The notes: a model not told the origin generated them from the letters alone. A DNA stretch of 36,010 nt from Thermoleophilia bacterium (GCA_030650885.1 JAUSDE010000197.1:1-36010); one strand, 5' to 3'; counted from the stretch's first letter, positions 1-24,300 are shown. Program-made: numbers and translations.

Positions 1-1684
1 CATATACATCGCTGACCGGCAGGCCGTAATATTCAGGTCCGCCGGTCCCTCCTCCCGATGGAGCCTCCAGGTACCTGGTCATGATCGGACCCGCCACGAC
101 GCCATAAGCACCGACACCCGGGCCCCAATACACCTTGCCGCCGGTGAATTCACTCTCCCTGGCGCCGGTCACACCGGGAACATCTTCCTCGTCATCCAAG
201 GGAATCCCCAGCGAGCCTGCCGGACCGCCAAGCTGGTCATATTTTGTCAGGATGGCGCCGCGGACCAGGTAGGTTTCGCTCAGAGGCTGATTCCAGAAAA
301 GGCTCCCGAGCTGGAAACCGCACCGCTGCGAACCGCTGGCGCCGGCTATATCGAAAACATCGGTCGTCGGCACACCGATGACCGACACGCCGTCCATCTC
401 GAGGTAATGCTCCTCGATCTCACCGGAAACCATGTGAGCTCCACCCGAGGATGACCAGTAGATGCGATCGTTCTCGAAACGGCTCTCACGCCCTCCCCAA
501 CCTCCGGCGCCGAGCTCGTCGGTGACAGGCATGCCCAATGAGACCGGCCCGCCCTCTGACAGATATCTCGCCAGAATCGCGCCGCGCACCTCGTGAGAAC
601 TGGTTGTGCCCGACCAGTAGACACGCCCCCTGGAAAACTGGTTTTCGCGAGCTCCCGGGACACCGGCCACATCCTGCTCATCCGTGATTGGGAAACCAAG
701 CTCCACCGGGCCCCCCTTCTCGAGATATTTGCCAAGGATCCCACCATAAACAGCATGCGCGTTTGTAGTCGGATGCCAGTAGATTCTTCCCCCGGAAAAA
801 TCACCCTCACGGCCGCCAGCGATATCGTACTCGTCGCTCCTGGGAAAACCCATGATGCCGGCCTCCCGTCCAAACTGGTTGTATTTCGCCAGGATAGCGC
901 CGCGGATCCAGTAGACGCCGCCAGCCTGGTTCCAGACGATCCTTCCGTTCTCAAAGTCCTGGGCCTGGCCGATCAGCTGGCCATCCGCTGACGACACGGG
1001 ATATTCGGCGTTCAACGGCCGGCCTGGAGCCCAGTTCAGGCCGTCCCATTTGATCCGGATGCCACCGTTTATCGGAAATGCGATATACATGGGATCAGCC
1101 ATGTTCCAGATGCGGGTCACGTGGACTGCCAGGGCATCACCATATCCGACGCCCGGCACTGCCCACTGCCCACCCAGATCCCTCAGGATGCGCACGGTAT
1201 TGCGATGGCCGGTTCCGAAATGCCTGGGATCCCAGGTGGTGTTGCAGTACTCGTTGACGTGGGTTGGATATACATACCAGGCAAGATGCGCGTAATGGGC
1301 TATGACGCCGGCCTCGGCGCTCGCGAAAGAGTTGCCGGGATTACCGCCCCCCGTAGCCCCGATGCCGGCGAAGTTGTTCTGCCAGGGCCTGACGTCGCCG
1401 GTATAGCGGAGGTAATTGGTCTCGTGGAGCATCTGCGAAAAGGCGAGGTCCGCCTTGATGCCGAAGCGGCTTCCCCAGGTGACATATAACTGCGCGATCT
1501 GAGGATGGATGTGGCCGGGATTCACATAACTGAGTTCCGCGTCCAGCTGCGCTGCCGTCACCATCGAGTATCCGGCGATCGGCTCATCGGCCGTGACTGC
1601 ATTTGCCGTCCCGCTGAAACACCAGAAAGCGATGAACATCGCCAGAATCAGGATCGACCTGTATTTTTTCCCCGCCGGAATCAT
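1..1684 (-). CDS. Secreted peptidoglycan hydrolase: N-acetylglucosaminidase (GH73/Glucosaminidase-type) head plus LGFP repeats; 3' end runs off the left edge
   Basis: Absent from the ORF track because it is open at the window edge. Hand translation from the ATG at 1684..1682 gives MIPAGKKYRSILILAMFIAFWCFSGTANA (signal peptide). It continues ...AFSQMLHETNYLRYTGDVRPWQNNFAGIGATG... (glucosaminidase-like) and then LGFP-type repeats (IRIKWDGLNWAPG..., ILAKYNQFGREAGIMGFPRSDEY..., ILTKYDQLGGPAGSLGIPLDDEEDVPGVTGARESEF...). The last full codon ends at nt 2 (...GGPEYYGLPVSDVY). I saw no in-frame stop. An in-frame stop at 1753..1751 with no start codon in between fixes the ATG. Confidence 0.8.
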   Translation of the reverse strand, partial: MIPAGKKYRSILILAMFIAFWCFSGTANAVTADEPIAGYSMVTAAQLDAELSYVNPGHIHPQIAQLYVTWGSRFGIKADLAFSQMLHETNYLRYTGDVRPWQNNFAGIGATGGGNPGNSFASAEAGVIAHYAHLAWYVYPTHVNEYCNTTWDPRHFGTGHRNTVRILRDLGGQWAVPGVGYGDALAVHVTRIWNMADPMYIAFPINGGIRIKWDGLNWAPGRPLNAEYPVSSADGQLIGQAQDFENGRIVWNQAGGVYWIRGAILAKYNQFGREAGIMGFPRSDEYDIAGGREGDFSGGRIYWHPTTNAHAVYGGILGKYLEKGGPVELGFPITDEQDVAGVPGARENQFSRGRVYWSGTTSSHEVRGAILARYLSEGGPVSLGMPVTDELGAGGWGGRESRFENDRIYWSSSGGAHMVSGEIEEHYLEMDGVSVIGVPTTDVFDIAGASGSQRCGFQLGSLFWNQPLSETYLVRGAILTKYDQLGGPAGSLGIPLDDEEDVPGVTGARESEFTGGKVYWGPGVGAYGVVAGPIMTRYLEAPSGGGTGGPEYYGLPVSDVY

Positions 1685-1760
1685 CTTCGAACCAGCTTCT
1701 GATAGAGCTGCTCTACCATCGACTCCCCTTGAGATCGCCCAAACCTTGCCCTAATCAACA

Positions 1761-1794
1761 AAGGTCAGGAATCACATGTATGATTCCTGACCTT
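1761..1794 (-). terminator. Intrinsic-terminator-like hairpin between the BNR-LGFP gene and the next gene
   Basis: AAGGTCAGGAATCA-catgta-TGATTCCTGACCTT is a perfect 14-bp stem. It is T-rich on the plus-strand side (GTCGTTTTCTATTT) and has UUGUUGAUU on the minus-strand RNA. It lies ~135 nt downstream of the stop at 1929. Confidence 0.5.
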
Positions 1795-1928
1795 GTCGTT
1801 TTCTATTTCCGGATCTGCTCACCCCGGTTATATTAATTCATCCACCGATGCGGATTACCTTCACTGCTCTTGCTGATCACACGCTGATCAAGCTGGTCGA
1901 TCACGGTGCAGCTGAATTGGACCTAGCT

Positions 1929-4900
1929 CTATATGTAATCCACCCAGGTGCCGTAGAGCGCCCACCAGGTAATGAATCCATGCTCGAAGCGGCTGCGCGC
2001 GCCGCCACCCGGAAGTGCCAGCGGATATTCATCGGTGATCGGCAGGCCCAGTCGTCCCTGAGGTCCGCCGACTGACAAGTAGGTCACGTAGACGCCGCCA
2101 TTGACTATGTGAGAACCGGTGGTGCCTGACCAGTAGACCCTTCCATTCTCGAAGACAGCCGCAACTGCATCAGCATGGGCGGGCAATGCCGGCGACAACG
2201 GTGCCTCTTCACTTATGATCAGATGCAGGTATCCCGCGGGGCCGCCCGTCATCTGGTATTTGACCATGACGCCGCCGCGTACGAAATGTTCGTGATCACG
2301 GGGGTTCCATGTGAAGATCGCCTTTTGGAAGTTCTGTCCGAAGCCATCCCATGCTGAGAATGAGTCGCTGGTCGGTATACCCAGGTAGGCAGATCCGCTA
2401 TTGGCATCGAACATATTCAGGAAGTCCATCCTCGTTATGGCATAAGTGCCCACACCCGGGCCCCAGAAGATCCTGCCGCCGGTGAAACGGCTCTCGCGAG
2501 CGCCGGCGACTCCGGCGACATCCTGCTCGTCCGTGGTTGCCAGGCCCAGGGAACCCAGGGGACCTCCGGGTACTCCGCCTGTGGTCCTGTACTTGGCGAG
2601 GATACCGCCGACTACCGCGTATGCGGGGTTGGCGCCGTTACCATCCCAGGTGATTATCGCTTTTTGCAGGTTCTGCGCTTTGCCGCCGCTGGCATTAAAT
2701 TCGTCACCGGTCGGAATGCCATATGTAGCTGACCCTCCGCCGGAGGTGAACTTCGTACCGATAGCTCCAGAGACTCCGTAAGCGCCCACACCCGGGCCCC
2801 AATAGATCCTGCCGCCGGTGAAAGAGCTCTCCACGGCGCCGGAGACGCCAGGGGCTGGTCCCTCATCGCTTGTGGGAAAGCCGAACGCGCCAGTAGTTCC
2901 ACCAAGCGCTTCATACTTGGTCTGGATGGCGCCATGCACCCACCACACCGTTGTAGGACTGGCCGGACCCATTGCCGAGTTCCAGATCAGTCTGCCGTTA
3001 CTGAAGTCCTGGTATTTGCCGCCGGTTATCACATGCGCTACATCTACGGCGGTGCCAGGCAACCCACCCAGACTATCCCACTTTGCAATGAAGTCAGGAT
3101 CAGTAGCAACCGGTGCGAACTTCAGAATCGCGCCATTACCGCCTGCGGCATAAAATGCGTAATTAGGACCGTTCTGTCCGAATGCCACATTGTACAAAGG
3201 CACATCGGTTCCGGACGATTCGATCGACCATGTACCAGCCAGCCCGTTGTATTTACCTATCCTGCCTTCATCGGCTACCAGGTAACCGGTGGTCGTGTTC
3301 AGCATGGTGACCCCGGCGATAAGCTTGCTCGTCGGTGACGTCTGTTCGGTCCATGTCAAACCGCCGTCTGTCGTCTTGTAGACCCTTCCCGTCGTGACCG
3401 TACTGCCACCCGAGCTGTAAGAGTTATAACCCACAGCCCAGCCATAAGTTGCGTCGACCATATCGATCGAGGTGAAGAAGTTGACGTTGGTCTTGATAGT
3501 GGCGGGACTGTTCCAGTTGCCCCCGCTGTACTTCAGGATTATTCCCTTGGACCCCTGCCCTGTTGCGCATCCAGTGGGGCATGGAGCCGAACCGACAGCC
3601 CAGCCGTTAGTACTTGCGGTCGTATCGACTGAGTTCAGGCTGTAAGTCGCACTGGGAACCGACTTGGTCCATGTAGTGCCATCAGCTGTCTGCATGATGA
3701 CGCCTTCTTCACCGACAGCAAAGCCGTTGGTGTCATCACTCATCTTCACGGAGCTCAGATAGCTCGCCCCGCCAGGGGTCACAAGATCCATCTCCGACCA
3801 GGTGCCGCTATTGTACTTATACGCCTTCGCTACATTGGGTGAACCTAGTATGACGCCCACAGCGAACCCGAGTGAAGCATTCCTGAAATTGACTCCATGA
3901 AGAGCGACGTTGGAAGCAATTCCGGCATTGTCGCTTGACCAGGAACCGCCACCATTCGTTGTGTGGTTCACGGTCCCATTTTCTCCGACGGTCCAGCCAT
4001 TGAGGTCGGTCACAAAACTGGAGCTGAAATTCGAGAGAGCGTCGCCGCCGTTCTTTGGGCTCCAGGTGCTGCCCGAATCAGTCGAAGCCAGCACCAGTCC
4101 GGCCGCACCGCCGACATAGCCGGTCGCGCTTCCCGGTGCAAAGCTCGCGCTGATCATCATATTCGAAGTACCTGATGTCATGGCTGCAAGACCCGACGCC
4201 ACGGTATCGATCGGATCCGCCCAGATATTGACTGCGTTCTTCCTGATATTGCCGCCGGAGCCTGTGGTAACGAGATTAGTTCCACCCGGTAACGCTACGC
4301 TGGTAAGCACTGTTGAAATCGGCCCTGACGCTGTATTAGGAGTCCAGGTTTCGCCGCCATCCGTTGTCCTCAAAATCCTTCCTGAGGCGTCCCCTCCGAC
4401 TGCATAGCCATTGCTCGAGCCTGAGAAAGCCACGGCGCTCAGATTCGCAGTTGTATTGGAGGTCTTGGCTGTCCAGTTAACCCCACCGTTGATCGTCTTG
4501 TAAACAACACCTGAGCTACCGACCGCGACTGCGGTTGTAGTGTTCAACATCTGCACTGAAGACAGGTTGCTGGTGCCGGTGCCGTTGCCCTTAGCCCATG
4601 TAGCGCCGCCGTTGGACGTATAGAATGTAAATCCGTCGCCGACTGTCACGCCGTTGTTTGCATCAAAGAAATGAACGGCCCGAAACGTCGGTGGCGAGGT
4701 GTCATAGGGGGGTGAAAAAGCCGGCGTGATATTGATGTGCTGGTCGGTCCAGGTAGTGCCACCATCGCTCGTCTTCCAGATCGAAGCGTAATCACCAACA
4801 GCCCAGCCCACACTGGCGCTTATAAAGGAGACTCCACGCAGGGCGCAACCGCTGCCGATGTTTGTACCATGGCACGTATAGGCCGGTGTAGCAAAAGCCG

Positions 4901-5153
4901 ATGGTGTCTGGACCGTCCAGTTTGTGCCACCGTTTGTCGTCTTCATGACCGACCCGCCGCCGCCAACGGCCCATCCGTTCGAGGCATCAATAAACGACAT
5001 CGCATTTATGTTATTGCCCTGGACTGTGGGGCGTACCCATTCCCAGATTCCGTTACCGGTACTGACACCAGCCATCGCCATGGGCGCAAAAACCAGGAGG
5101 CCCAACAACGACAGCGCAAGCAAAATCTTTAGAGTCAAAAATCTCTTCTTCAT
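1929..5153 (-). CDS. Secreted BNR/Asp-box (Ycf48-like) beta-propeller protein with C-terminal LGFP repeat array
   Basis: 1074-aa ORF with signal peptide MKKRFLTLKILLALSLLGLLVFAPMAMA. About nine Asp-box motifs are present (TTNGGTNWT, TSDGGTTWT, TSNGGATWA, TINGGVNWT, TTDGGETWT, STDSGSTWS, TTNGGGSWS, TADGTTWT, TTDGGLTWT). The last ~390 aa (nt ~1932-3101) hold ~7 LGFP-type repeats. SD AAGGGG lies 5 nt upstream of the ATG. Confidence 0.85.
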   Translation of the reverse strand: MKKRFLTLKILLALSLLGLLVFAPMAMAGVSTGNGIWEWVRPTVQGNNINAMSFIDASNGWAVGGGGSVMKTTNGGTNWTVQTPSAFATPAYTCHGTNIGSGCALRGVSFISASVGWAVGDYASIWKTSDGGTTWTDQHINITPAFSPPYDTSPPTFRAVHFFDANNGVTVGDGFTFYTSNGGATWAKGNGTGTSNLSSVQMLNTTTAVAVGSSGVVYKTINGGVNWTAKTSNTTANLSAVAFSGSSNGYAVGGDASGRILRTTDGGETWTPNTASGPISTVLTSVALPGGTNLVTTGSGGNIRKNAVNIWADPIDTVASGLAAMTSGTSNMMISASFAPGSATGYVGGAAGLVLASTDSGSTWSPKNGGDALSNFSSSFVTDLNGWTVGENGTVNHTTNGGGSWSSDNAGIASNVALHGVNFRNASLGFAVGVILGSPNVAKAYKYNSGTWSEMDLVTPGGASYLSSVKMSDDTNGFAVGEEGVIMQTADGTTWTKSVPSATYSLNSVDTTASTNGWAVGSAPCPTGCATGQGSKGIILKYSGGNWNSPATIKTNVNFFTSIDMVDATYGWAVGYNSYSSGGSTVTTGRVYKTTDGGLTWTEQTSPTSKLIAGVTMLNTTTGYLVADEGRIGKYNGLAGTWSIESSGTDVPLYNVAFGQNGPNYAFYAAGGNGAILKFAPVATDPDFIAKWDSLGGLPGTAVDVAHVITGGKYQDFSNGRLIWNSAMGPASPTTVWWVHGAIQTKYEALGGTTGAFGFPTSDEGPAPGVSGAVESSFTGGRIYWGPGVGAYGVSGAIGTKFTSGGGSATYGIPTGDEFNASGGKAQNLQKAIITWDGNGANPAYAVVGGILAKYRTTGGVPGGPLGSLGLATTDEQDVAGVAGARESRFTGGRIFWGPGVGTYAITRMDFLNMFDANSGSAYLGIPTSDSFSAWDGFGQNFQKAIFTWNPRDHEHFVRGGVMVKYQMTGGPAGYLHLIISEEAPLSPALPAHADAVAAVFENGRVYWSGTTGSHIVNGGVYVTYLSVGGPQGRLGLPITDEYPLALPGGGARSRFEHGFITWWALYGTWVDYI

Positions 5154-5465
5154 GAATACCCCTTAGTGGAAATATATTGAGTCTCTGAATCAGGACAACC
5201 CGGGGGGAATAAATGTATCTCTAGTAATTGCTTCGGAGATTCGCCCGCATAATCAACTCGAAACCCGCTCTGATCACTGTATTATTCACCCGTTATAACG
5301 CATCTTTCCTGTGTAATAAAGGTACCTTCTTGCAAGAGCTAAATCAAGTTATACACAGTTTAAGCAATGTTGCGAAATATTACCTGATGCACCCTTTTTG
5401 AGTGATATTCATGCCATTTACACGCGAAGAAAATCTGAAAACGAAGAAACCGGCGCGGGTGATCC

Positions 5466-5912
5466 CTACATTACATCGATCCAGGTGCCATATAACGCGC
5501 CCCAGGTGACGAATCCATGCTGGAACTGGCTGCGCCTGCCGCCGCCCGGCAGGGCTATGGAGTATTCATCCGTTAACGGCAGTCCAAGGCGGGAGTTAGG
5601 GCCGCAGTTATTGGTCCCGGCATCGCAATAACCCATATATCTGATGTAGATGCCGCCGTTGACCGTATGTCCGCCTGTAACTGAAGACCAGTAAACATTC
5701 CCGTTCTGGAAAGTGTTCATTCTGGCTCCGGTGATACCGGGGACGACGCCGGGGACGTCCTTCTCTTCACCCGTAGCAAGGTGCAGGGCGCCCGTAGGAC
5801 CGCCGAGCAGCTGGTATTTGCCCATGATGCCTCCATAGACTGCGAAGGCTCCCAGGGCGTCGTTCCAGGTAATGATCGCATTTTGCATATTCTGGGCTTT
5901 GCCGTCCCAGGC
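5466..5912 (-). repeat. Conserved 3' LGFP tail module, copy 1 (last 148 codons of the CAP gene)
   Basis: Encodes AWDGKAQNMQNAIITW...GARMNTFQNGNVYWS...YCDAGTNNCGPNSRLGLPLTDEYSIALPGGGRRSQFQHGFVTWGALYGTWIDVM, closely matching copies 2 and 3. Confidence 0.8.
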
Positions 5913-7169
5913 TGCATATTCATCGCTGATCGGCAGGCCATAAGGCCCCGCAGGTCCGCCCTCGGCCATGTACTTTGTCATGACCGGACCTGCCGTGACA
6001 CCAAAAGCACCTACGCCCGGGCCCCAATAAACCGTACCGCCGGTGAATTCACTCTTCCTGGCGCCGGTCACACCGGGAACGTCGCCCTCACCAGCGGTCG
6101 TAAAACCTAACGGACCGGCCGGGCCACCCAGTATCTTGTATTTACCCATGATGCCGCCGACGACGGCATATACAGGATTCGATGTACCGTCCCAGGTCAA
6201 CGCCGCACGCTGGAAATACTGCGCCCTGCCACCCGCGGCGGCAAACTCGTCACCGACAGGCAGCCCATATGCTCCGGCGGGTCCGCCCTGTGCCAGGTAG
6301 CTATCTACGATAGCCGTCCCTGGAATAACGCTGAAAGCGCCAATGCCAGGTCCCCAGTAGACTGTGCCATTTGTGAATTCGGTCTTCCTGGCGCCCGCGA
6401 CTCCATTGACATCGCCTTCATCGCTTACAGGAAGGCCGAGCGGACTGTTCCAACTGCCGAGCTGGTCGAATTTGGTCAGGATGGCGCCTCGAACCCAGTA
6501 GACTTCATTCCTCGATTGGTTCCATACCAGCCTCCCGCTGACAAAGTCCTGATACGTGCCACCTGTCATTACCTGGGCATAATTTGTAGCGGGACCGGGA
6601 GCCCCACCAAGCGCATTCCATTTTCCCGCCACAGATGCGTCAATAGGATAGACCGGTGCTTCAGAAACACCGCCGAAGTCCGTCGTCCAGTACCAGCCAT
6701 AAGTAGAGCCAGGAACGTAGTACCTGCCGATGCCGATCGCCCGAAAGTTGGCACTGAGCATGTTGGCGTTGTGACCAGGTGAGGCGCGCCAGGCGACAAA
6801 GACATCAAATGCAGTGCCATAGCCTGCTGCGATATTTTCTCCCAGATATGTGTTGTATGTATAACCGGCATAGCGAATCCGATCCCAGGGAGTGACCCCC
6901 TGTGGATCATTGTGAGCGAAATAATTCCTCGCGCCCATATCGTAGCTATGCCCCTCGGAAGCGACATACAATGAATTGGAAAGAGTCAGTGGCCCCAGGC
7001 CATAAGCCGCGCGGTGATTGTTGATATAAGTCAGGAAAGCAAGCTCTTCGTTGTCATAAGCAGAGGCTGCCGGAACGACCGCGAGACTTACGAACAGGAC
7101 TATCATAAATACGGCGAACGCCGAGATCACAAACCGCGAAGAAATTATTTTCCCACCCGTGGCTACCAT
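5466..7169 (-). CDS. Secreted CAP/SCP (PR-1/YkwD-like) domain protein with LGFP repeat array
   Basis: 567-aa ORF with an N-terminal membrane/signal segment. The CAP-like block is NNHRAAYGLGPLTLSNSLYVASEGHSYDMGARNYFAHNDPQG...GENIAAGYGTAFDVFVAWRASPGHNANMLSANFRAIGIG (nt ~6672-7049). LGFP repeats run from aa ~176 to the C-terminus. SD GGGAG lies 6 nt upstream of the ATG. Confidence 0.85.
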   Translation of the reverse strand: MVATGGKIISSRFVISAFAVFMIVLFVSLAVVPAASAYDNEELAFLTYINNHRAAYGLGPLTLSNSLYVASEGHSYDMGARNYFAHNDPQGVTPWDRIRYAGYTYNTYLGENIAAGYGTAFDVFVAWRASPGHNANMLSANFRAIGIGRYYVPGSTYGWYWTTDFGGVSEAPVYPIDASVAGKWNALGGAPGPATNYAQVMTGGTYQDFVSGRLVWNQSRNEVYWVRGAILTKFDQLGSWNSPLGLPVSDEGDVNGVAGARKTEFTNGTVYWGPGIGAFSVIPGTAIVDSYLAQGGPAGAYGLPVGDEFAAAGGRAQYFQRAALTWDGTSNPVYAVVGGIMGKYKILGGPAGPLGFTTAGEGDVPGVTGARKSEFTGGTVYWGPGVGAFGVTAGPVMTKYMAEGGPAGPYGLPISDEYAAWDGKAQNMQNAIITWNDALGAFAVYGGIMGKYQLLGGPTGALHLATGEEKDVPGVVPGITGARMNTFQNGNVYWSSVTGGHTVNGGIYIRYMGYCDAGTNNCGPNSRLGLPLTDEYSIALPGGGRRSQFQHGFVTWGALYGTWIDVM

Positions 7170-7371
7170 GATTTTCTCCCTGACCTGAAAAGATTACTCA
7201 TGAGATAAGAATTCGTCGAAAAACATCAGCCTTAATCATGACTATCTACTTATTGAGTCGGCAGTGACGCCAGTCCGCTTTATTGAAGAGGGTTCGAAGC
7301 GAACATCTCAAAAGGGAAAGAGCCATCTACTCTTCAGCGAACATATTCGTTAAAGGTTACTCGACCGGCGC

Positions 7372-7818: not shown

Positions 7819-9084
7819 GTTATAGGCATCGCTGACAGGCAGTCCATAATATGCCGGTCCGCCGGTCCCGCCACCCGATGGAGCCGCCAGGTACTTGGCA
7901 AGGATCTCGCCATTTACCCAGTAAACCGCGTTCGTCGACTGGTTCCAGAAGAGGCTGCCGTTACTGAAATCCTGGTACTTGCCGCCGGTTATTGTCTGCG
8001 CCACATCGAGAGCGGTACCGGGCGCGCCACCAAGGGCATTCCATTTCTCGGCAAAGGGAGCCTCGACTAAAACCGGTGGCTGTGTGTTGCCGTCATCAAT
8101 AATCGCGGCACGGAACGACTGCAGGCCGGCAGCGGAACTCTGGACTCTCCAGTCGGTTTCTTTATTGATATTGAACCAGGTCAGGCTGATGATGCGAGGG
8201 AATCTTGATGGCAGGGAAGCAAATGCGTCGGTGATCCAGCCGGCTTTCCCGCCATTGCCGGTATTGCCGCCCACCTCAGTCGTCGCTGTCTCGCAGATAA
8301 CAACGGATTTATCAGTGTTCGCGACGGCCACGTCATAACTGTAGCGAATGACCTCTTCAAAACTTTGCCAGGAAGATGTCCAATCCGGAGTATTGTAAAG
8401 AGTGCCCCAGTTGTATCCGTTTATTCCAATGAAATCCACGTAAGCATCGCCGGGATAGTAGGTATTAAAAGTTGCCTGGGCCGCGCTGGTGGAGCCATCG
8501 CGATTCGGCGACCAGACCCATTTGACGTTAGTCGCGCCTTCCTGGACAAAGATGTCGTGGACATGCCGCCAGGCAGGTATATAGTCCTGCGGTGAATTCC
8601 CGTTTGCGCTGCCACCCCATGTGACCCAGTCACCATTCATCTCGCTCATCGGGCGGAAATAGACCGGGTAGCCAAAATCCCTCAGCTGCCTGGCCCATCG
8701 CCTGATGTCGTTGTCGAAATCGCCGGCGGTTATTCTTGCAAGTCGATACTCGGGCTGATCGGTGGCGGGACGGCTGAAATCATGGGGCTCCCAGGCCAGC
8801 TGGATGATGCGGCCTTCCTGGGCCATCGGGAGAAAGGTGTCAGCGTAAAAATCCTCACTTATCGACTCATACCACAAAAAGACATCCGTCTGCCGGCCGA
8901 TGGAGCTTTCGAAATCGTGGAGATCTTCGACGGAAGGAAGCTGCTCGTCAGGGAATTGAGGATCGGGGAAGAAGACGCCGAGTTGCAGGGGGTTTGGTGC
9001 TGCATCCGCACTCGCGACAGCGGCCGTGGTAAAAAAGATACAGAACAGAACCGCCGCTAATATCGTAGCTATGACGCGAAACAT
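7372..9084 (-). CDS. Secreted GH26-type glycoside hydrolase (beta-mannanase-like) with LGFP repeats; start moved to the internal Met
   Basis: The ORF track gives 7372..9291 (639 aa). Its first 69 aa have no signal peptide and overlap a structured riboswitch-like leader. Met70 (ATG 9084..9082) begins MFRVIATILAAVLFCIFFTTAAVASADA (signal peptide) and follows a GAGGAGG SD. GH26-like motifs are YFRPMSEMNGDWVTWGG, YYPGDAYVDFIGINGYNWG and VVICETATTE (nt ~8107-8994). LGFP repeats run from EKWNALGGAPGTA to the end (nt ~7375-8064). Confidence 0.8.
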   Translation of the reverse strand: MFRVIATILAAVLFCIFFTTAAVASADAAPNPLQLGVFFPDPQFPDEQLPSVEDLHDFESSIGRQTDVFLWYESISEDFYADTFLPMAQEGRIIQLAWEPHDFSRPATDQPEYRLARITAGDFDNDIRRWARQLRDFGYPVYFRPMSEMNGDWVTWGGSANGNSPQDYIPAWRHVHDIFVQEGATNVKWVWSPNRDGSTSAAQATFNTYYPGDAYVDFIGINGYNWGTLYNTPDWTSSWQSFEEVIRYSYDVAVANTDKSVVICETATTEVGGNTGNGGKAGWITDAFASLPSRFPRIISLTWFNINKETDWRVQSSAAGLQSFRAAIIDDGNTQPPVLVEAPFAEKWNALGGAPGTALDVAQTITGGKYQDFSNGSLFWNQSTNAVYWVNGEILAKYLAAPSGGGTGGPAYYGLPVSDAYNAWDGKAQNMQKAIITWNSSLGAHAVYGGIMGKYQMLGGPTGPLHLATSDEIDVPGVVPGVTGARMNMFQNGDVYWSIITGGHTINGGIYVRYKSYCDAGTSNCGPNSRLGLPITDEYSIPLPGGGRRSQLQHGFVTWGAWYGTWVDVR

Positions 9085-9101
9085 GGGGAGCCAGGCCTCC
9101 T

Positions 9102-9185
9102 CGGCGGCAGCCAGGCTGTCATAGTCCGAAGACCTTAGACCCTTGGCTTTGCGCCACCCCGTTTCCGAGGTTTTGCCTTTATCAC
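9102..9185 (-). promoter_or_regulatory. Candidate c-di-GMP-I (GEMM-I) riboswitch in the 5' leader of the GH26-LGFP gene
   Basis: Minus-strand RNA: GUGAUAAAGGCAAAACCUCGGAAACGGGGUGGCGCAAAGCCAAGGGUCUAAGGUCUUCGGACUAUGACAGCCUGGCUGCCGCCG. In order it shows GGCAAAACC; a CCUCG/CGGGG hairpin with a GAAA tetraloop; GCGCAAAGCC; a second hairpin with tetraloop-receptor-like UCUAAG...UAUGA and a UUCG loop; and an AGCCUGGCUGCC 3' block. The GAGGAGG SD follows directly. Confidence 0.7.
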
Positions 9186-9440
9186 CCGGAACTGGCTTCT
9201 CCCCCACCAACCACGCGCCACGGTGTAGCCACTTATGTGACCAATACTTGTATCGGTCTTTACATAAACCCGCTTTATTGCCGTTGGACAAAGGGAGTAT
9301 GGTTTGCCGCCTCGGAAAGTGGACTGATTCAAGGTCAGGGTCGTTCTAATTATTGTGAAAAGTATCATGTATAGAATATCGATGCATCCAGCGGGGAGGA
9401 AATGTTAATCGAAAGCCCTTCAGAATAACCGGGGGAATTG

Positions 9441-9887
9441 CTACATGACGGTTACCCAGGCGCCGTACCATAGCCCCCAGGTGACAAAGCCGTGCTGAAG
9501 CTGGCTGCGCCTGCCACCACCGGGCAGGGCAATCGAGTATTCATCGGTTATTGGCAGGCCCAGGCGGGAGTTGGGGCCGCACTTTGAGGTTCCTGCATCG
9601 CAATAGGCCTTGTAGATCACGTAGATGCCGCCGTTGATCGTGTGTCCGCCTGTGACCGTGGACCAGTAGACATCGCCGTTCTGGAACATGTTCATCCTGG
9701 CGCCGGTGACACCGGGGACTACGCCGGGGACGTCGATCTCATCGCTGGTTGCGAGGTGCAGGGCTCCTTTTGGACCACCCAACATCTGGTATTTGCCCAT
9801 TATCCCACCATAAACCGCGTGAGCTCCCAGGGTGCTATTCCAGGTTATGATAGCTTTTTGAAGGTTCTGTGCCTTGCCGTCCCAGGC
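9441..9887 (-). repeat. Conserved 3' LGFP tail module, copy 3 (M4 protease gene)
   Basis: Encodes AWDGKAQNLQKAIITW...GARMNMFQNGDVYWS...YCDAGTSKCGPNSRLGLPITDEYSIALPGGGRRSQLQHGFVTWGLWYGAWVTVM. Confidence 0.8.
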
Positions 9888-12308
9888 ATCATAAACGTCG
9901 CTGACAGGAATTCCGTAGTATGCCGGCCCGCCGGTTGCTCCGCCCGCCGGAGGCTCCAGGTATTTGGCGAGGATATAGGCATCCGAGATCGCGTAGGTGC
10001 CGATACCCGGACCCCAGTAGATCCTGCCGCTGGCGAAATCGCTCTCCCTGGCGCCGGTTACGCCAGTGACGTCTATCTCGTCACTCACGGGAAGGCCGAG
10101 CGCACCAGATTCACGGCCCTGCTGGTCATATTTTGTCAGGATAGCGCCATGAACCCAGTAGACCGTATCGGTCGACTGGTTCCAGATGAGCCTGCCGTTG
10201 CTGAAATTCTGGTATTGCCCGCCGGTGATCGTCTGCGCCGCACTAGTGGCTGTGCCCGGAGCTCCACCCAGTGCGTTCCATTTTTCCAGGAATGGAGTTT
10301 CGACGGGTAGTGGAGTGTCATCCTGTGTTGGGACGAAAGAATACACTGTGACGAGGTCATTCACGGCTACCGGAGTATCTGTAGCCGTGAAGGTCACTCC
10401 GTTATCCGTGATTGAAAAAGTCCTGATGGAACCGGTATCCTGGCCGGCGGCGTCATAGACTTTAAGGAACCATCGATTCTGCCAGCTGGGAGACAGATAG
10501 GCGCTACCGCCGGAGATGTCGACCGTCGAATAGATATTATCCGCGGAACCGCCCTGCCGATTCGAGACCACAGTCGACCAGCTTGGCGAATCCGGATTGC
10601 CGACTCCAAGGGTCACTATCAGATCGCCCCTGTAGGTGTGGTCGATCTCGATTCTCGCATTCTGGGTGGATGACTGGCCTGAGCCGATTCCGACAGCTGC
10701 AAAACCGTTTTGCACTGCGATTACTTCCGGGCTGCCCGAACCATAAAGGTCGGCAGCCGACTGCACGCTCGCGTCTCGAGCATCGACAAACTGAGATCCG
10801 GAGTTCAGGTATAAAGTCAACGTCCGGTACCAAATGAACTCCATCTTGTCCTTGCCGATCGCTGTGGCAATGTTATAAGCCGCCTTGTTCGGTATGCCGC
10901 TGTTTGTATGGACGCCACCGTTGTCGCTTGAAGTATTCACATAGCTGTTCATGTGGTCGGGTTGCCCATACTGCGCAGGATTGGACACGCTACGAAGCGC
11001 GTCCCCCGGGGTATTCGGCGTGTATACGTCCTCACCCAGCAGCCAGTCGTCACGGTCCACCATCACACCGAATACATCTGAGTAGGATTCGTTTAGCGCG
11101 CCAGACTGGTATGAGTAGACGAGGTCGGCGGTATATTGCGTGACCCCGTGGGTGAGCTCGTGGGCGACAACATCCAGGCTGTTGCCGAGCGGGCCGAAAA
11201 CATTTCCATCGCCGTCTCCGTAGACCATCTGCTGGCCGTTCCAGTAGGCGTTGTTATAGCTGCTGCCATAGTGGACAGTCGAGATCAGGGAAGCTCCGGC
11301 GTTATTGAAACTGTCGCGCCCGAATGTGCTGGAGTAGTAGTCATAGGTTGAGCCGATATTATTGTGTGCCGCCTGGGCGACGCTGTCCCCGGAGGAACCA
11401 CCCTCGCTGATGAGCAGAGTGCCGGGCGTGGTGGTGCCACTGCCGGCCGTGTAGGTACGGCGATTCTTTACATCTTCGAGGGCGTCATATCGATCTACGA
11501 TGCTGCCATCTTTGGCCCCGACAAAATAAACCATCCGCACGGGCGGGTTATCATTGGCAAGGGTGATCTGCCACGCCAAAACCGGCCGGTTGGGATCAGG
11601 GGAATAGATCACCAGCTGAGGTGGTTCGAACGTCGAAGCTGCTGCAGGGAACCCAAAGTCATGCAGTGCTGCATCGATAGCCTGATCCAGTGTCACCGCG
11701 GGATCCACCGACAGATCGATACCAGGCACGTAGCGCCCGTTCACGGTCTGAATCTTGTTGCCAGGGCTGAAGTGCACTGACATCTCTGTCCCAAAAACCG
11801 GAAGACCTTTGTAAACCTGGGCCATGTGCAGATGTACCATGCCCATTTCATCCACGACCTGGCGCTGCTCCGACAGCTCGGCGCCCGGATCTGTCATGCG
11901 GTATAAATCCTTGTTCTCATCGAAAAACGCAACTGCCTCGACTGTCGGGCTCCCAGTCACTGGCGGTGTTATCGATCCCGTTATAAATGCCGGTATGCCT
12001 GTTTCGGCATCCCAGCGGATGGAGGTTGATTCGCTTTCTACGAGCGTTGATCCTGAGTCTGTCTTTTGTGGGATGTCGGCTGCGCCATCTACACCCGGCG
12101 AGCCTGTTTCCGGAATACTGAAGTTGACTTCTGAGGCGACTTGCGGTGAGACTTCGGCTACTGCATCAACTGAAATGGCGGGATTATCGGCTGGAACGGC
12201 TGGAACGGCCGCGAACTGCTCTGTCAGTAAAAACAAAGAAACAACGGCAGTCAAAACTACTGCCAGGATGGCCGCTAACTTGCATAGCCACTTACCTGAA
12301 GGCCCCAT
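9441..12308 (-). CDS. Secreted M4 (thermolysin-like) zinc metalloprotease with propeptide, P-domain and LGFP repeats
   Basis: 955-aa ORF with an N-terminal signal anchor. The propeptide-like region includes VHLHMAQVYKGLPVFG. The M4 active site is VVAHELTHGVTQYTADLVYSYQSGALNESYSDVFG (HELTH at nt 11148-11162). The proprotein-convertase-type P-domain block is IEIDHTYRGDLIVTLGVGNPDSPSW...WFLKVYDAAGQDTGSIRTFSI (nt ~10401-10658). LGFP repeats cover aa ~672-955. SD GGGAG precedes the ATG. Confidence 0.88.
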   Translation of the reverse strand: MGPSGKWLCKLAAILAVVLTAVVSLFLLTEQFAAVPAVPADNPAISVDAVAEVSPQVASEVNFSIPETGSPGVDGAADIPQKTDSGSTLVESESTSIRWDAETGIPAFITGSITPPVTGSPTVEAVAFFDENKDLYRMTDPGAELSEQRQVVDEMGMVHLHMAQVYKGLPVFGTEMSVHFSPGNKIQTVNGRYVPGIDLSVDPAVTLDQAIDAALHDFGFPAAASTFEPPQLVIYSPDPNRPVLAWQITLANDNPPVRMVYFVGAKDGSIVDRYDALEDVKNRRTYTAGSGTTTPGTLLISEGGSSGDSVAQAAHNNIGSTYDYYSSTFGRDSFNNAGASLISTVHYGSSYNNAYWNGQQMVYGDGDGNVFGPLGNSLDVVAHELTHGVTQYTADLVYSYQSGALNESYSDVFGVMVDRDDWLLGEDVYTPNTPGDALRSVSNPAQYGQPDHMNSYVNTSSDNGGVHTNSGIPNKAAYNIATAIGKDKMEFIWYRTLTLYLNSGSQFVDARDASVQSAADLYGSGSPEVIAVQNGFAAVGIGSGQSSTQNARIEIDHTYRGDLIVTLGVGNPDSPSWSTVVSNRQGGSADNIYSTVDISGGSAYLSPSWQNRWFLKVYDAAGQDTGSIRTFSITDNGVTFTATDTPVAVNDLVTVYSFVPTQDDTPLPVETPFLEKWNALGGAPGTATSAAQTITGGQYQNFSNGRLIWNQSTDTVYWVHGAILTKYDQQGRESGALGLPVSDEIDVTGVTGARESDFASGRIYWGPGIGTYAISDAYILAKYLEPPAGGATGGPAYYGIPVSDVYDAWDGKAQNLQKAIITWNSTLGAHAVYGGIMGKYQMLGGPKGALHLATSDEIDVPGVVPGVTGARMNMFQNGDVYWSTVTGGHTINGGIYVIYKAYCDAGTSKCGPNSRLGLPITDEYSIALPGGGRRSQLQHGFVTWGLWYGAWVTVM

Positions 12309-12521
12309 TTTCCACTCCCAGTACCGGCGTTTTCATCCCCGACAGGGTCTGGCGCCTCCCCAAAAAAGTCTACTGGGATTACAGCCTTGAACTTGGCCTA
12401 TGCCCGAACCCTCAATAACTGATTCGGCCCGGGAGCGACTATATATAAGCCGGAGGGGGTGCTAACGCGGTTCAGGAGGGGGTCTACCCCTGTCCGAGAA
12501 CGGGCGTTCAGGGACTTTTAC

Positions 12522-15500
12522 TCAGGATGCGCGGGCGATCGCTATGCGGACGTTCCTGGTCGTATTTACCGTCTGCACGGTGGTTCCCGTGTAATAATAA
12601 CCGAGGATAGTGGTATAACTATCGCCGCGGCTGGCGCGATCCAGCGCACCATGACCGCTGAGGCCGACCCCATGGCCGTTCATGGCCATTCCGGCGCAGT
12701 CTGGGTCGGCAACGCTTTGCAGCCAGGGCCAGGTGCTGATGCCCCAGACCTCTTGTGCCGAACGGGTCCTGCCATCGGAGTTGGAGAAGTATGAGGTCAT
12801 GGCCACAGAACCGCCATACGTCACGACCTGCCCGGCGGTAGAGGTCACCGCTGTCGCCAGGTCGGGGAACCTTGCTTCCAACCCATAACCCTTGTACTGC
12901 TGGTCGTCGCCGTTACCATTACGGCTGTTTTTCAGGTGGAAGATCTCGCTGGCACCGTATTTTCCATTACGGTCCAGGTGCCAGACAGCGTAACTGCGGG
13001 CAGCCACGGTCATCGTCTTGAGAAAATCTGTGGGCACGCCGGAACTGGTCTCAGCGATTCCCCTCATGTAAAGCTCGAGGGGCAGCTCGTTAACTACCCA
13101 AACCGCATCTGACGCCGGCGAGTAACGCACCTCGATCGTTCCGCGGAAGAGGTTATCGTCCAGACCAGGATTCCAGCTGGGGATGTCATGATAAGAAGAA
13201 ACCTTCATGACGCCCCCATTGGCCGTAAACCTGATGTAAGAAGAGCCATTGAGAGAAACGCCGGGAGCCTGCAGGCTGTAGTTACCGCTGCTGTACCTGA
13301 CTGAAGCAACCTGGCCGGGAGCAATCGTTGCCAGCAGAGCCCCACCTGCATCTCGAGCCTCGTATGTCGAATCAGCAGTCACGGTGGTGGCAGTACCGGC
13401 AAATACCTGAGTGCCGGTAGTGGCGCTCCAGTAAATGTAGCCACCCTGGAAATCGCTGCGCCGGCCGGACCCGTAATCATATTCATCGGTGAGCGGCAGG
13501 CCTAATGCTGAGGTGGGACCACCATACTCGATGTACTTCACATAGATCCCACCATTGACCGTGTGGCCACCTGTAGTCGAAGACCAGTAGATGCGGCCGC
13601 GCTGGAAACCATGCTCCCTGGCTCCGGATACACCGGAGACATCAGTCTCACCGGAAACCGGCAAGCCAAGGGCGCCGGCGGGTCCGCCAAGCTGCAGATA
13701 TTTCCCGAGTATGCCGCCGTAGACTTCGTATGTGCCGGTGGTTGCGTGATAGTAGATGCGCCCTTGCTGGAAGTCGCTTTCCCTGCCGCCAGTGACGCCC
13801 GAAATATCGTACTCATCGGTCAAGGGCAGGCCCAGGAGCCCCGCGGGACCACCAAGTGCTAGATATTTAGTGAAGATAGCGCCCATCACAGCATGGCCGC
13901 CAGTGACCGGGGCCCAATAGATGCGCCCGCGCTGGAAGGCGCTCTCCCTGGCTCCGGATACTCCGCTTACGTCTCCCTCATCGCTGGTCGCGAGCCCGAG
14001 CGACCCGGCCGGGCCTCCGAACTGCGCATATTTGACCTGGATGCCTCCTATTACCGAATGAGCGCCGAGAGAAGCCTCCCAGGTGATCGTCCCTCGCTGC
14101 AGGTTCTGGGCCCTTCCATTAGCGGCGGCGTACTCATCGCTCGTCGGCATGCCATATGATCCCGCGGGGCCACCAAGCGCCAGATATTTCGTCAATATCG
14201 CACCGTAAACACCGTATACACCAACACCCGGCGCCCAGTAGATCCTGCCGTTTGTGAATTCGCTCTGGCGGCCTCCGGAAAGACCTGAAATATCGCTCTC
14301 GTCGCTGACGGGAAGGCCTAGTGGCGAGGCAGGTCCGCCCAGCGCAAGGTATTTCCCGAGAATCCCACCAATCACAGTTCGGGAACTGCCACTAGCGGAC
14401 CAATAGATCCGAGCCCGCTGAAAGTCGCCGGCTCTTGTACCGGCATAACCCGGCACGTCGTATTCGTCGGTCGTAGGGAAGCCATCACGGGCGACACCGC
14501 CATCACTTAGCAGCTTTGCGAGGATCGCCCCCGTCACGGCATGTGTGCCGACGCCGGGACACCAGTAAATCCTGCCGCCCGCAAAGTCGTTGCCGCGCCC
14601 CTCTGCCACGCCGTATTCATCACTTCTGGGCAAGCCCATGGATCCAGACGCACCGCCAAGCTGATTGTATTTTTCAAGGATGCCACCGTGGATCCAGTAA
14701 ACTCCGCCGGCGGGGTTCCATATGATGATGCCATTCTGGAAATCCTGGGCCTGCGCCTCAAGCGGGCACTGGCCACCGGGATTCGACAGGCAGTACTCAG
14801 CGCCTGTTGCCGGACCGGGCGCTCCGTTGAGGCTGTCCCACTTGACGCGGATGCCTGCGACTATCGGAATCGGTGAATAATTGATGTATGCCGCCGTCCT
14901 GAAATATGGCAGATAGGCGTAGAGAGAGTCTCCGGGGCAAGCAGTGTAATTTCCGGCAAGATCACGATGTCCCAGAATATTTGATGAGTAACCGCCGACC
15001 GGATAGCAGTTATCAGGACAACCTTCGTAATGAACGAAATAACTATTTCCGTATGGGTCGATCTGGTTCTGGTTGGCCTTTATCGTCATCAGTTCTGCGA
15101 CAGCGTTATAGATGGCGGTATTTATATCGTGCGCCTCGTAGTTGCCCATCACGGAGATTCCGACCGAACCGGTATTCCAACCCAAAGCATGAGCGCCGAC
15201 GACACCGTTGCCGCCCATCCGCCCCTCGTAGACCCGTCCGAGTTCGTCAACGAGGAAGTTGTAGCCGATATCTCCCCATCCGAGGCTGACAGCATGGTAT
15301 TGCCAGATGCCGAGCACTGTGGCAAACGGATTCGGATCATAGTTGGAGCCCGCCGTGTGATGAAGGATGATCTTCTTCGGCTGGGCATATTCGGAGGGCC
15401 AGTTCGCCTGTGTATAGGCGTCGTTGGCTCCCCACTGGGTTCTGGGGATGTAATTGAGGTCTGCGCTGGCCGAGGCCGGAGCGAGCGCGTCTCTGACGTT

Positions 15501-16115
15501 TTGACTAATATTCGACAGGGACAGCTGTGAGTTGTGATAGCCCCTGGAGTCGATGTAGCTGGCCGTCATCTTTGTGACTACCGGCACCTGGCCGGTTGGG
15601 CTGCTGGTCAGGTCGATGCGATACTGAAAAAATCGGCCGGCGTCCGTGAAAATCAGATCGCCTATCGTCTCGCCCGCGGATTTGGTGCTGGCAAAGTGGT
15701 TGGGTAATTCGTCGACTACTTCGCTGACCGGCTGCCAGTCACCCCACTGGCTGCCGTCCTGGCTGAAGCGGACTTCCACGGCTACGTCGGCTCCGGACGG
15801 CTGATCGGCTTTCCAGTGAAGCCCGAGGGCGTTGAAAGTGTAATCGGCCGCGATGGGTTCGGAGAGATAGCTGCCTTGAGGCTGTGCTGGCTGCAGAGAA
15901 AGCGCCAGCTCCCGGCTTCCAGCCACGGGAACGACGCCGGTGCCACTCGATTCGCCTGATTCAAAGTCGGTGCCGGTCTGGACAAAGTCACCGCTGATTG
16001 CTTCCGGGTGAGATGTCTGGCTGCCGAATCCGGGAAAAACAAAGAATGCGGCAATCAGAAGCAGAACCACGACTGCTGTTCCTGTGAAGTACTTATACCT
16101 GCCACGCATGATCAT
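12522..16115 (-). CDS. Membrane-anchored/secreted N-acetylmuramoyl-L-alanine amidase (Amidase_2/PGRP-type) + 9 LGFP repeats + SpoIID/LytB-type domain
   Basis: 1197-aa ORF with an N-terminal hydrophobic segment. The Amidase_2 block is KKIILHHTAGSNYDP...WGDIGYNFLVDELGRVYEGR...LGHRDLAGNYTACPGD (nt ~14928-15452). Nine repeats of the type I(L/F)xKYLxLGGPxGxLGLPxSDExDxSGVxGxRExxFxxGRIYW cover nt ~13401-14858. The C-terminal SpoIID-like block is LELYMRGIAETSSGVPTDFLKTMTVAARSYAVWH...VVTYGGSVAMTSYFSNSDGRTRSAQEVWG...GHGVGLSGHGA (nt ~12561-13163). Confidence 0.88.
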   Translation of the reverse strand: MIMRGRYKYFTGTAVVVLLLIAAFFVFPGFGSQTSHPEAISGDFVQTGTDFESGESSGTGVVPVAGSRELALSLQPAQPQGSYLSEPIAADYTFNALGLHWKADQPSGADVAVEVRFSQDGSQWGDWQPVSEVVDELPNHFASTKSAGETIGDLIFTDAGRFFQYRIDLTSSPTGQVPVVTKMTASYIDSRGYHNSQLSLSNISQNVRDALAPASASADLNYIPRTQWGANDAYTQANWPSEYAQPKKIILHHTAGSNYDPNPFATVLGIWQYHAVSLGWGDIGYNFLVDELGRVYEGRMGGNGVVGAHALGWNTGSVGISVMGNYEAHDINTAIYNAVAELMTIKANQNQIDPYGNSYFVHYEGCPDNCYPVGGYSSNILGHRDLAGNYTACPGDSLYAYLPYFRTAAYINYSPIPIVAGIRVKWDSLNGAPGPATGAEYCLSNPGGQCPLEAQAQDFQNGIIIWNPAGGVYWIHGGILEKYNQLGGASGSMGLPRSDEYGVAEGRGNDFAGGRIYWCPGVGTHAVTGAILAKLLSDGGVARDGFPTTDEYDVPGYAGTRAGDFQRARIYWSASGSSRTVIGGILGKYLALGGPASPLGLPVSDESDISGLSGGRQSEFTNGRIYWAPGVGVYGVYGAILTKYLALGGPAGSYGMPTSDEYAAANGRAQNLQRGTITWEASLGAHSVIGGIQVKYAQFGGPAGSLGLATSDEGDVSGVSGARESAFQRGRIYWAPVTGGHAVMGAIFTKYLALGGPAGLLGLPLTDEYDISGVTGGRESDFQQGRIYYHATTGTYEVYGGILGKYLQLGGPAGALGLPVSGETDVSGVSGAREHGFQRGRIYWSSTTGGHTVNGGIYVKYIEYGGPTSALGLPLTDEYDYGSGRRSDFQGGYIYWSATTGTQVFAGTATTVTADSTYEARDAGGALLATIAPGQVASVRYSSGNYSLQAPGVSLNGSSYIRFTANGGVMKVSSYHDIPSWNPGLDDNLFRGTIEVRYSPASDAVWVVNELPLELYMRGIAETSSGVPTDFLKTMTVAARSYAVWHLDRNGKYGASEIFHLKNSRNGNGDDQQYKGYGLEARFPDLATAVTSTAGQVVTYGGSVAMTSYFSNSDGRTRSAQEVWGISTWPWLQSVADPDCAGMAMNGHGVGLSGHGALDRASRGDSYTTILGYYYTGTTVQTVNTTRNVRIAIARAS

Positions 16116-16300
16116 CCATACCCCGCTTGAAGCTTATACCCTGCCATACCTTAACAAATATTTGCAGGGAGTTCGGCGCCGTGAATATTAATCTACCAGC
16201 GCAGCGTGCTGCCCCGGAAACGCCGGGCTATTACCTGAAAGTTATGCCCGCCGCCCGCATATCCTTCAAATTGGCTGCCCAACCCTATAGGATTCGAAAC

Positions 16301-24182: not shown

Positions 24183-24300
24183 ATTTAAAATCAGTCAATC
24201 ATGTTTGATTCAGTCAAGCAGTCACGATTGCAGCGGAATCCCCCAGCCGCGCAACGGTCGGCAGCTTGAGATATCTGCGATAGTATCCGAAAGCCCGGTC

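Follow-up and report, generated by a model that had tools for sequence, protein, structure and literature searches.

The DNA analysed here (the window) is an entire contig of 36,010 bp from a Thermoleophilia bacterium. At its left end it carries six adjacent genes, g1 to g6, each of which encodes a predicted secreted protein that combines a distinct module, or head, with an array of LGFP repeats. The genes lie at 2..16115, are all on the minus strand and therefore co-directional, and are separated by intergenic gaps of 200-350 bp. The contig end falls within the repeat array of g1. This layout of different heads on a shared array was noticed in an original prediction made from the DNA, and was borne out by gene calling and by searches with Pfam. 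The genes, and the divergent gene that borders them, are as follows (aa, amino acids; GH, glycoside hydrolase family; GT4, glycosyltransferase family 4).

2..1684, minus strand: g1, with a signal peptide, a GH73-like/TftA-C-like head and an LGFP array (nt 2..1075) of at least 7 units, cut at the contig end
1929..5153, minus strand: g2, with a signal peptide, a propeller of Ycf48/BNR-type repeats that spans about 680 aa, and 7 LGFP units (nt 1932..3104)
5466..7169, minus strand: g3, with a signal peptide, a CAP/SCP (YkwD-like) domain and 7 LGFP units (nt 5469..6644)
7372..9084, minus strand: g4, with a signal peptide, a GH26 domain and 4 LGFP units (nt 7375..8067)
9441..12308, minus strand: g5, with a signal peptide or anchor, an FTP propeptide, an M4 thermolysin-type protease, a weak P-domain-like region and 5 LGFP units (nt 9444..10307)
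12522..16115, minus strand: g6, with an N-terminal anchor or signal, an Amidase_2 domain, 9 LGFP units (nt 13401..14864) and a C-terminal SpoIID/LytB domain
16127..17416, plus strand: GT4 glycosyltransferase gene, divergent from g6 and forming the conserved right-hand border of the locus

The N-termini of all six proteins consist of a charged or basic n-region followed by a strongly hydrophobic h-region, with AxA-type cleavage sites in four of the six; judged by these N-termini, the genes encode Sec-type secreted proteins, as had been predicted. A search of the gaps between g1 and g6 found no open reading frame (ORF) of 30 aa or more, except one that overlaps a riboswitch, in agreement with the earlier claim that no immunity or secretion genes are interleaved. 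Pfam searches found no secretion-system or toxin-delivery domains in the window and no CWB2 or SLH anchor modules in g1 to g6, where LGFP is the only anchor that was found. Exact-sequence look-ups of g2, g3 and a related protein, P0007, returned no match, and the nearest proteins in the database carry the label 'MAG: Thermoleophilia bacterium' (MAG, metagenome-assembled genome).

The tandem repeats are identified by the Pfam LGFP family PF08310, which matches all six proteins with scores of 108.7-358.8 bits against a cut-off of 22 (E 1.7e-31 to 1.4e-109). Units of about 54 aa were delimited with a repeat profile built from the units of g6. There are four units in g4, five in g5, seven each in g3 and g2, nine in g6 and at least seven in g1, and the predicted range of 5 to 9 repeats thus stands at its upper end and has to be lowered to four at the other. 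Alignment of all 39 units resolved five recurring types.

First-unit type: KW(N/D)xLGGxPG...QDFxNGRLxWN
Unit type A: DVxGVxGARESxFxGGRIYWGPGVG
Unit type B: AWDGKAQNxQKAIITW
Penultimate-unit type: LHLA(T/I)...ARMNxFQNGxVYW
Terminal-unit type: GGIYVxY...LPGGGRRSxxxHGF(V/I)TWxxxYGTW

The conserved polarity that had been proposed for the arrays is evident from the unit alignment and from the g1 orthologue. Every array opens with a (K/E)W(N/D)xL(G/N)(G/W)xPG...QDFxNGxxxWN unit, and those of g2 to g5 close with ...LPGGG(R/A)RSxxxHGF(V/I)TWxxxYGxW plus four residues, an ending that is also present in the full-length orthologues of g1. The array of g6 has a related final unit, which is followed by SpoIID. 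In the wider family, scanned with a repeat profile that misses degenerate first units, 27 of 134 C-terminal arrays carry a GxRR(S/N/T) signature, as do all the g6 orthologues listed; its GxRRS form is found in the final unit of g6 and its orthologues and, among distant LGFP proteins, in that of a minority. The terminal unit of g3, g4, g5 and the g1 orthologue contains an insert, YCDAGTxxCGP (for example within 7375..7560 of the window), which is absent from g2 and g6 and whose two cysteines (Cys-x6-Cys) could form a disulfide.

The tails match the PS1/MytA protein of Corynebacterium glutamicum, the sole solved LGFP structure (PDB 6SWZ and 6SX4), by sequence (E about 1e-23) and in predicted fold. 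The AlphaFold2 model of the five-unit g5 tail has a predicted local distance difference test score of 96.7 and a predicted template modelling score of 0.90, and the only strong neighbours that Foldseek returned for it are 6SX4 and 6SWZ (E 8e-19, root-mean-square deviation 3.5 A over 277 columns, TM-score 0.73 when normalised on the query and 0.82 on 6SWZ). The predicted tail has the fold that defines an LGFP unit, a helix with a three- to four-stranded antiparallel sheet, and its units stack into an elongated stalk. Sequence and model together show the tails to be genuine LGFP arrays that share the fold of MytA.

The LGFP domain of MytA is a five-unit stalk that binds the peptidoglycan-arabinogalactan wall (PMC11299179). 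It is built of the same repeats of about 54 aa, superposes on the five-unit tail of g5 and, like that tail, lies C-terminal to the catalytic head of a secreted actinobacterial protein. The proteins described here differ from MytA in having four to nine units, a terminal unit of the lineage's own (HGF(V/I)TW...YGTW) and the Cys-x6-Cys insert. They differ also in g6, where the array is internal and lies between two catalytic domains, and in the host, which is of an uncultured Thermoleophilia-type lineage. From the MytA precedent, wall tethering is the best reading of the tails: the stalk would bind peptidoglycan, a wall-linked glycan made by an adjacent locus, or both, and would present each head at the wall.

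Throughout the Actinomycetota, LGFP repeats are joined to dozens of heads, among them esterase/mycoloyltransferase, GH25, GH3, GH43, YkuD, polysaccharide deacetylase, NlpC/P60, VanY, astacin, caspase-like, calpain-like, Amidase_2 and SpoIID domains. Variation of the head on a common LGFP tail thus characterises the family as a whole and is not peculiar to this cluster. The terminal unit has a narrow distribution. When GTDB was scanned with one genome for each species, a single further genome proved to carry it, MAG 5_8_m_bin1 (GCA_016650015.1), and in metagenomes only a few contigs did. For this reason, the comparative evidence comes mostly from metagenome contigs and MAGs that were reached through homologues of g6 and g5. 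One small contig of MAG 5_8_m_bin1, which ends in an LGFP terminal unit, also carries an S-adenosylmethionine (SAM) riboswitch (L010:208-332) that is unrelated to the locus.

Most of the heads that had been predicted (BNR, CAP, GH26, M4, Amidase_2 and SpoIID) were recovered with Pfam, and two, the GH73 domain of g1 and the P-domain of g5, score below the cut-offs. The head of g1 reaches 27.7 bits against a cut-off of 30.2 for the glucosaminidase family PF01832. It also matches the C-terminal domain of TftA, a cyanobacterial morphoprotein of NCBIfam (E 3e-24), and direct reading finds an HETN motif at aa 87, a possible catalytic signature; a PDB sequence search with this head gave no match. Given the TftA match and the HETN motif, a GH73-like designation is plausible. 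The NCBI name for the g1 orthologue is 'glucosaminidase domain-containing', and full-length orthologues (P0002, and those at L017 and L049; 81% identity) have an array of nine units. The head of g2 matches PSII_BNR/Ycf48 (E 2e-30), and that of g3 is a CAP domain (E 3e-21) that resembles the divisome-associated DalA and YkwD families. In g4 the GH26 match (E 8e-16) is accompanied by SEMNG and ICET motifs that agree with GH26 catalytic signatures, and the nearest relative of this head is the lichenase CelH of Clostridium thermocellum (E 1e-49). The g5 protein has FTP, Peptidase_M4 and M4_C matches together with the M4 catalytic signatures HELTH and NESYSD, which were read directly from the sequence; its P-domain scores 19.4 bits against a cut-off of 21. 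An orthologue of g5 at L049 is 71% identical. The M4 protease and the GH26 beta-glucanase would act as wall-tethered exoenzymes, and the CAP and propeller proteins as binding or accessory modules.

The g6 protein differs in being flanked by catalytic domains on both sides of its array. Pfam places Amidase_2 at its N-terminal side (E 3e-15) and SpoIID at its C-terminal side (E 6e-11), the latter also recognised by the SpoIID/LytB model TIGR02669 (114.2 bits, cut-off 83.3) and carrying a GIAE motif at aa 1019. The Amidase_2 domain has an HHT motif at aa 252, a partial catalytic signature; the second signature expected in this domain (H...CPG) was searched for and not found. The SpoIIP/SpoIID pair has a known division of labour in peptidoglycan degradation, and by extension the amidase of g6 would remove stem peptides from the producer's own peptidoglycan, after which the SpoIID-type lytic transglycosylase would cut the denuded strands. 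The partner in g6 is of the Amidase_2 and not of the SpoIIP type. The sporulation SpoIID equivalog TIGR02870 scores 79 bits, below its threshold of 234.75, and no sporulation genes were found in the window. The g1 protein probably also remodels the producer's own peptidoglycan.

More than 20 protein clusters, with identities of 53-82%, keep the architecture of g6, and its position between GT4 and Wzm is conserved in relatives. Single-protein fusions of Amidase_2 and SpoIID with other spacers are widespread (hits P0143-P0238); the spacers include Ig-like domains, PF16158, CARDB and PF27503, and one match is labelled Candidatus Peregrinibacteria. The amidase-spacer-SpoIID design is hence more general than its LGFP version.

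Comparison of the locus with its relatives separates a conserved core from a variable set of genes. The core consists of GT4, then the Amidase_2-LGFP-SpoIID gene, then a wall-glycan locus that typically begins with Wzm/Wzt. Between the amidase gene and Wzm there are zero, one or two additional LGFP genes in relatives and five in the window. In four Thermoleophilia MAGs (L039, L041, L043 and L044) the g6 orthologue is the only one of the six genes at the site, and the flanks match the window gene for gene: to the left of the g6 orthologue are a histidine kinase, RpoN, an ABC-2 pair, Dus, a hypothetical protein, peptidase MA, PolX and GT4. On the other side, Wzm and Wzt (with Wzt_C) directly follow the g6 orthologue in L039 and L041 and are followed in turn by glycosyltransferases, with a methyltransferase in L039. 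In L043 and L044 glycosyltransferases follow, with methyltransferases further downstream, and the fetched locus contains no Wzm/Wzt. In L039, the closest of the four, the backbone is about 87% identical to that of the window (73-93% for individual proteins), yet g1 to g5 are all missing from the site. The g6 orthologue of L039 is only 61% identical beside these conserved neighbours, which, from the sequence comparison, is the pattern of a fast-evolving surface protein.

Closer relatives carry different subsets. The locus at L049/L045 reads Amidase_2-LGFP-SpoIID (82%), M4-LGFP (71%) and GH73-LGFP (81%), then Wzm. L001 has a CAP-type tail, BNR-LGFP (48%) and GH73-LGFP (81%), then Wzm, Wzt, a methyltransferase, GT2 and WsaF. 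L017 has a chimeric amidase gene and the GH73 gene before Wzm, and in L046 two amidase-LGFP genes adjoin glycosyltransferases. A glycan locus thus lies beside the LGFP gene or genes in L001, L017, L049, L039, L041, L043 and L046, and the window itself shows the GT4 border only; its cluster very probably continues into Wzm/Wzt past the contig end, to judge from L001, L017 and L049. Read from these gene orders, the ancestral state is a single LGFP gene, Amidase_2-LGFP-SpoIID, at the border of a wall-glycan locus, and the window, with five added LGFP genes, is the largest known accretion at this site.

There is also evidence that heads and tails have exchanged partners. Many Thermoleophilia MAGs encode M4 heads that are 61-77% identical to that of g5 and are followed by a Big_5 tail, in proteins of about 1,195 aa (hits P0242-P0283). 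In the MAG that holds L039, this gene is found on another contig, at an unrelated locus among unrelated genes (L050:5065-8649, GCA_054642175.1). The M4-LGFP combination is restricted to the closest relatives, from which it follows that the protease was given a new tail and moved into the locus. The CAP-headed proteins P0003/P0005 and a Sortilin-headed protein at L021 are 100% identical over their last 115 aa, the CAP orthologue P0001 carries a penultimate unit of the g2 type, and in the window itself g3, g4 and g5 share 77-87% DNA identity at their 3' ends. L017 corresponds to L049 minus 4.86 kb, from the interior of the g6 array to the interior of the g5 array (L017:1535-1600 against L049:1549-6407). 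The flanks of the two are 99.6-99.9% identical, and the product is an in-frame amidase-LGFP gene without SpoIID. The L017 junction has no exact run longer than 8 nt common to both source arrays, which makes a simple k-mer mis-join unlikely, and it contains about 50 nt of mosaic that match neither. The deletion is probably a real recombination product, the alternative being a chimeric metagenome assembly. Taken together, these comparisons are the mark of heads and tails that have been re-assorted, and the LGFP repeats themselves would be the recombination substrates by which genes are added, deleted and re-tailed.

Two features in the intergenic gaps bear on how the genes are expressed.

9103..9187, minus strand: c-di-GMP-I (class I cyclic di-GMP) riboswitch aptamer in the g4 leader, found with the Rfam covariance model
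1761..1794, minus strand: perfect-looking, terminator-like hairpin, with 15 bp in its stem, located after the stop of g2 and before the start of g1

The riboswitch (RF01051) is the sole Rfam match in the window. It covers model positions 1-87 of 87 on the coding strand of g4, with 80.8 bits (E 1e-14; gathering score 35); the other genes of the cluster have no Rfam match, even at E-values up to 1. The aptamer ends 18 nt before the ATG of g4 at 9084, with a Shine-Dalgarno sequence (GAGGAGG) in between. The original prediction had left out the riboswitch. A longer ORF for g4, of 639 aa, begins at a TTG at 9291; as the riboswitch occupies the stretch between the two starts, that ORF is an over-extension, and the start at 9084 agrees with the database gene call P0004 (570 aa). 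The short distance from aptamer to Shine-Dalgarno sequence suggests translational control. In the minimum free energy fold of the leader, the Shine-Dalgarno region is base-paired to the 5' flanking sequence of the aptamer, but the z-score of this fold, -1.3, is not significant against shuffled sequences. A GH26-LGFP gene of 35% identity (L047/L048) has no riboswitch, and no g4 orthologue was recovered. The GH26 gene would respond to c-di-GMP through the riboswitch, which suggests a role in the turnover of matrix or biofilm glucan. One related MAG encodes a GGDEF protein.

A scan of 1..16400 for sigma-70 promoters and terminators returned nothing above shuffled expectation, the 1761-1794 hairpin excepted. 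No sigma-54 -24/-12 sites were found upstream of g1 to g6, and reading by eye found no motif common to the six leaders. Since the terminator-like hairpin separates g2 from g1, g1 is probably a separate transcription unit. The long leaders of 200-350 bp, the hairpin after g2 and the single riboswitch together indicate that the genes would be expressed individually and not as one operon.

The LGFP family extends beyond the cluster to the opposite end of the window, where a seventh member, also left out of the original prediction, begins.

35696..36010, plus strand: 5' part of a seventh gene of the LGFP family, which covers the signal peptide and the beginning of a Big_13-like head

In L018, the orthologue of this gene joins a Big_13 head to an LGFP tail of five units, of which the first and the last are the same; the orthologues in L018, L020 and L004 adjoin genes for rho, transaldolase and pantothenate kinase. 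Sortilin/BNR (L021) and FG-GAP (P0007) heads occur in further relatives. In the window, the seventh gene is preceded by hyp358, Big_13 and DUF4418 genes that lead into it. A perfect sigma-54 -24/-12 consensus, TGGCACATTCCTTGCT (31100..31115, plus strand), is located about 180 nt upstream of these three genes, and rpoN, a PAS histidine kinase and an NtrC-type activator are encoded a few kb upstream of that site (24205..28575). The total of sigma-54 pattern matches in the window is not above chance. Sigma-54 is unusual in Actinomycetota; rpoN is conserved in related MAGs.

Several known systems follow a comparable logic, a shared anchor with many heads being the usual plan of wall-protein families that are anchored non-covalently. 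In Clostridioides difficile, proteins with CWB2 modules share one non-covalent wall anchor and have diverse domains that include proteases and amidases (PMC5270738). Twelve of the 29 CWB2 paralogues are encoded in one locus, which contains a variable cassette and directly adjoins the PS-II glycan cluster that is thought to make the anchor ligand (PMC5270738). The LGFP paralogues resemble the slpA/cwp locus in being partly clustered, in having a Wzm/Wzt glycan locus adjacent in relatives and in their variable content. Unlike that locus, they use an LGFP stalk and not a CWB2 trimer as the anchor fold, and the window lacks an S-layer protein and SecA2, so that the likeness is an organisational analogy and not homology. 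If the parallel extends to the ligand, the LGFP tails may recognise the glycan that the neighbouring Wzm/Wzt system exports. The SLH-domain families of Bacillus and Clostridia likewise place different heads, autolysins among them, on a common anchor (PMC5270738), with other modules and ligands and with genes that are mostly dispersed. Presumed wall-binding LGFP ends are also found on a few phage endolysins, such as gp39 of phage Barnyard and an endolysin of Tsukamurella phage TPA2 (PMC3314691). These share an amidase or glycosidase head with LGFP; the genes of the window differ in encoding signal peptides and in being chromosomal, with no phage context. In C. difficile, c-di-GMP riboswitches of class I govern genes for surface proteins and for a secreted metalloprotease (PMC11477304). 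Those leaders, like that of g4, precede a secreted envelope-acting enzyme, which here is a GH26-LGFP glucanase in an actinobacterial MAG. The same common-anchor logic is followed by the choline-binding proteins of Streptococcus pneumoniae, which have another anchor and ligand and whose genes are mostly dispersed.

The original prediction had presented the cluster as an undescribed system. No description of an LGFP cluster of this type was found in the literature; the kind of system is nevertheless a described one, in view of the many heads to which LGFP is fused across the Actinomycetota and of the clustered anchor paralogues beside a wall-glycan locus in C. difficile (PMC5270738).

The interpretation that we consider probable is that the locus is a variable, recombination-prone and lineage-specific tandem expansion of secreted envelope proteins, which are held non-covalently at the wall by their LGFP stalks. 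Judged from the distribution of its genes, the battery is a recent local accretion of proteins with a shared destination, and not six functionally coupled parts; relatives that carry one to three of the genes, or different subsets, at the same site argue that it is not an obligate six-part machine.

Several points weigh against this interpretation. The contig stops inside g1, and the presence of Wzm/Wzt beside the cluster of the window is extrapolated from three relatives. The relative order g6...g5...g1-Wzm is kept wherever the genes are present, and co-location may thus carry a selective advantage. Some of the structural variants come from short metagenome contigs and are possible mis-assemblies. 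With regard to the wall ligand of the tail, Thermoleophilia are not known to have arabinogalactan, nor is the host lineage known to have mycolate, so that the LGFP ligand here may differ from that of MytA.

A more specific extension of the expansion model is offered as a tentative one. In it, the locus would be a site for surface enzyme cassettes at which LGFP plays two parts, as an anchor to a methyl-capped glycan exported by Wzm/Wzt and as a homologous substrate for the capture of new heads and for the deletion and re-tailing of genes. The M4 protease, with LGFP in exchange for Big_5, would be one such capture, and the captured GH26 gene would have been placed under riboswitch control by c-di-GMP for matrix turnover. 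Should this hold, a deep actinobacterial lineage would provide the first LGFP-based equivalent to be described of the clostridial S-layer/cwp cassette.

The original prediction had raised, as one possibility, a wall-tethered autolytic or remodelling toolkit for division, sporulation or biofilm matrix turnover. In its functionally coupled form, the genes would be co-located for co-expression and for co-assembly on the wall, for example in division, cell separation or a sporulation-like process. Three heads are plausibly directed at peptidoglycan (GH73-like, Amidase_2 and SpoIID), the CAP domain has its divisome-associated likeness, and the genes are co-directional and keep their relative order in close relatives. 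The GH26 head of lichenase type and the M4 head are not peptidoglycan enzymes, however, and the unmet SpoIID equivalog threshold (79 against 234.75) does not favour a sporulation role. Each gene has its own leader of 200-350 bp, a hairpin separates g2 from g1, and the riboswitch precedes g4 only. The conservation of the cluster, by which coupling was to be judged, also runs against it: relatives with backbone proteins of 73-93% identity carry only g6 at the site, closer relatives hold two or three genes in differing combinations, and clustering is lost in the four MAGs with matching flanks and largely so beyond the nearest relatives. Coupling of this kind is accordingly judged unlikely.

Somewhat less likely still is that the proteins serve wall-displayed nutrient scavenging, by a cellulosome-like logic in which a protease, a beta-glucanase and carbohydrate-binding propellers are kept at the surface for the capture of their products. 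The CelH-like head of g4, the thermolysin-type protease with its FTP propeptide and the fusion of LGFP elsewhere to GH3, GH43, GH25 and deacetylases would suit such a role. It leaves the amidase-SpoIID, GH73-like and CAP members unexplained, the cluster contains no transporter or sugar-utilisation genes, and the c-di-GMP riboswitch points to control by lifestyle or matrix and not to substrate induction.

The remaining suggestion of the original prediction, a surface-displayed arsenal against neighbouring bacteria, can call on the several lytic activities that the domains imply for these secreted proteins and is nonetheless very improbable, as the gaps contain no immunity-type small ORFs, no specialised secretion or toxin-delivery domains were found, every relative examined keeps the core gene as one housekeeping-like copy, and a tail that binds the producer's own wall would keep the enzymes on the producer.

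The locus, as a probable tandem expansion of wall-held envelope proteins, leaves current concepts unchanged and is an example from comparative genomics rather than a new mechanism. It provides a picture of wall equipment in uncultured actinobacteria, in which one conserved single-chain amidase-SpoIID enzyme at the edge of a glycan-export locus is surrounded by fast-changing LGFP-anchored enzymes, and in which a riboswitch links c-di-GMP directly to a wall-tethered glucanase. If the LGFP tail does bind the neighbouring glycan, the rule that anchor genes lie beside the genes for their ligand would extend from the Firmicutes to the Actinomycetota, and LGFP would have a class of ligand outside the mycolata.

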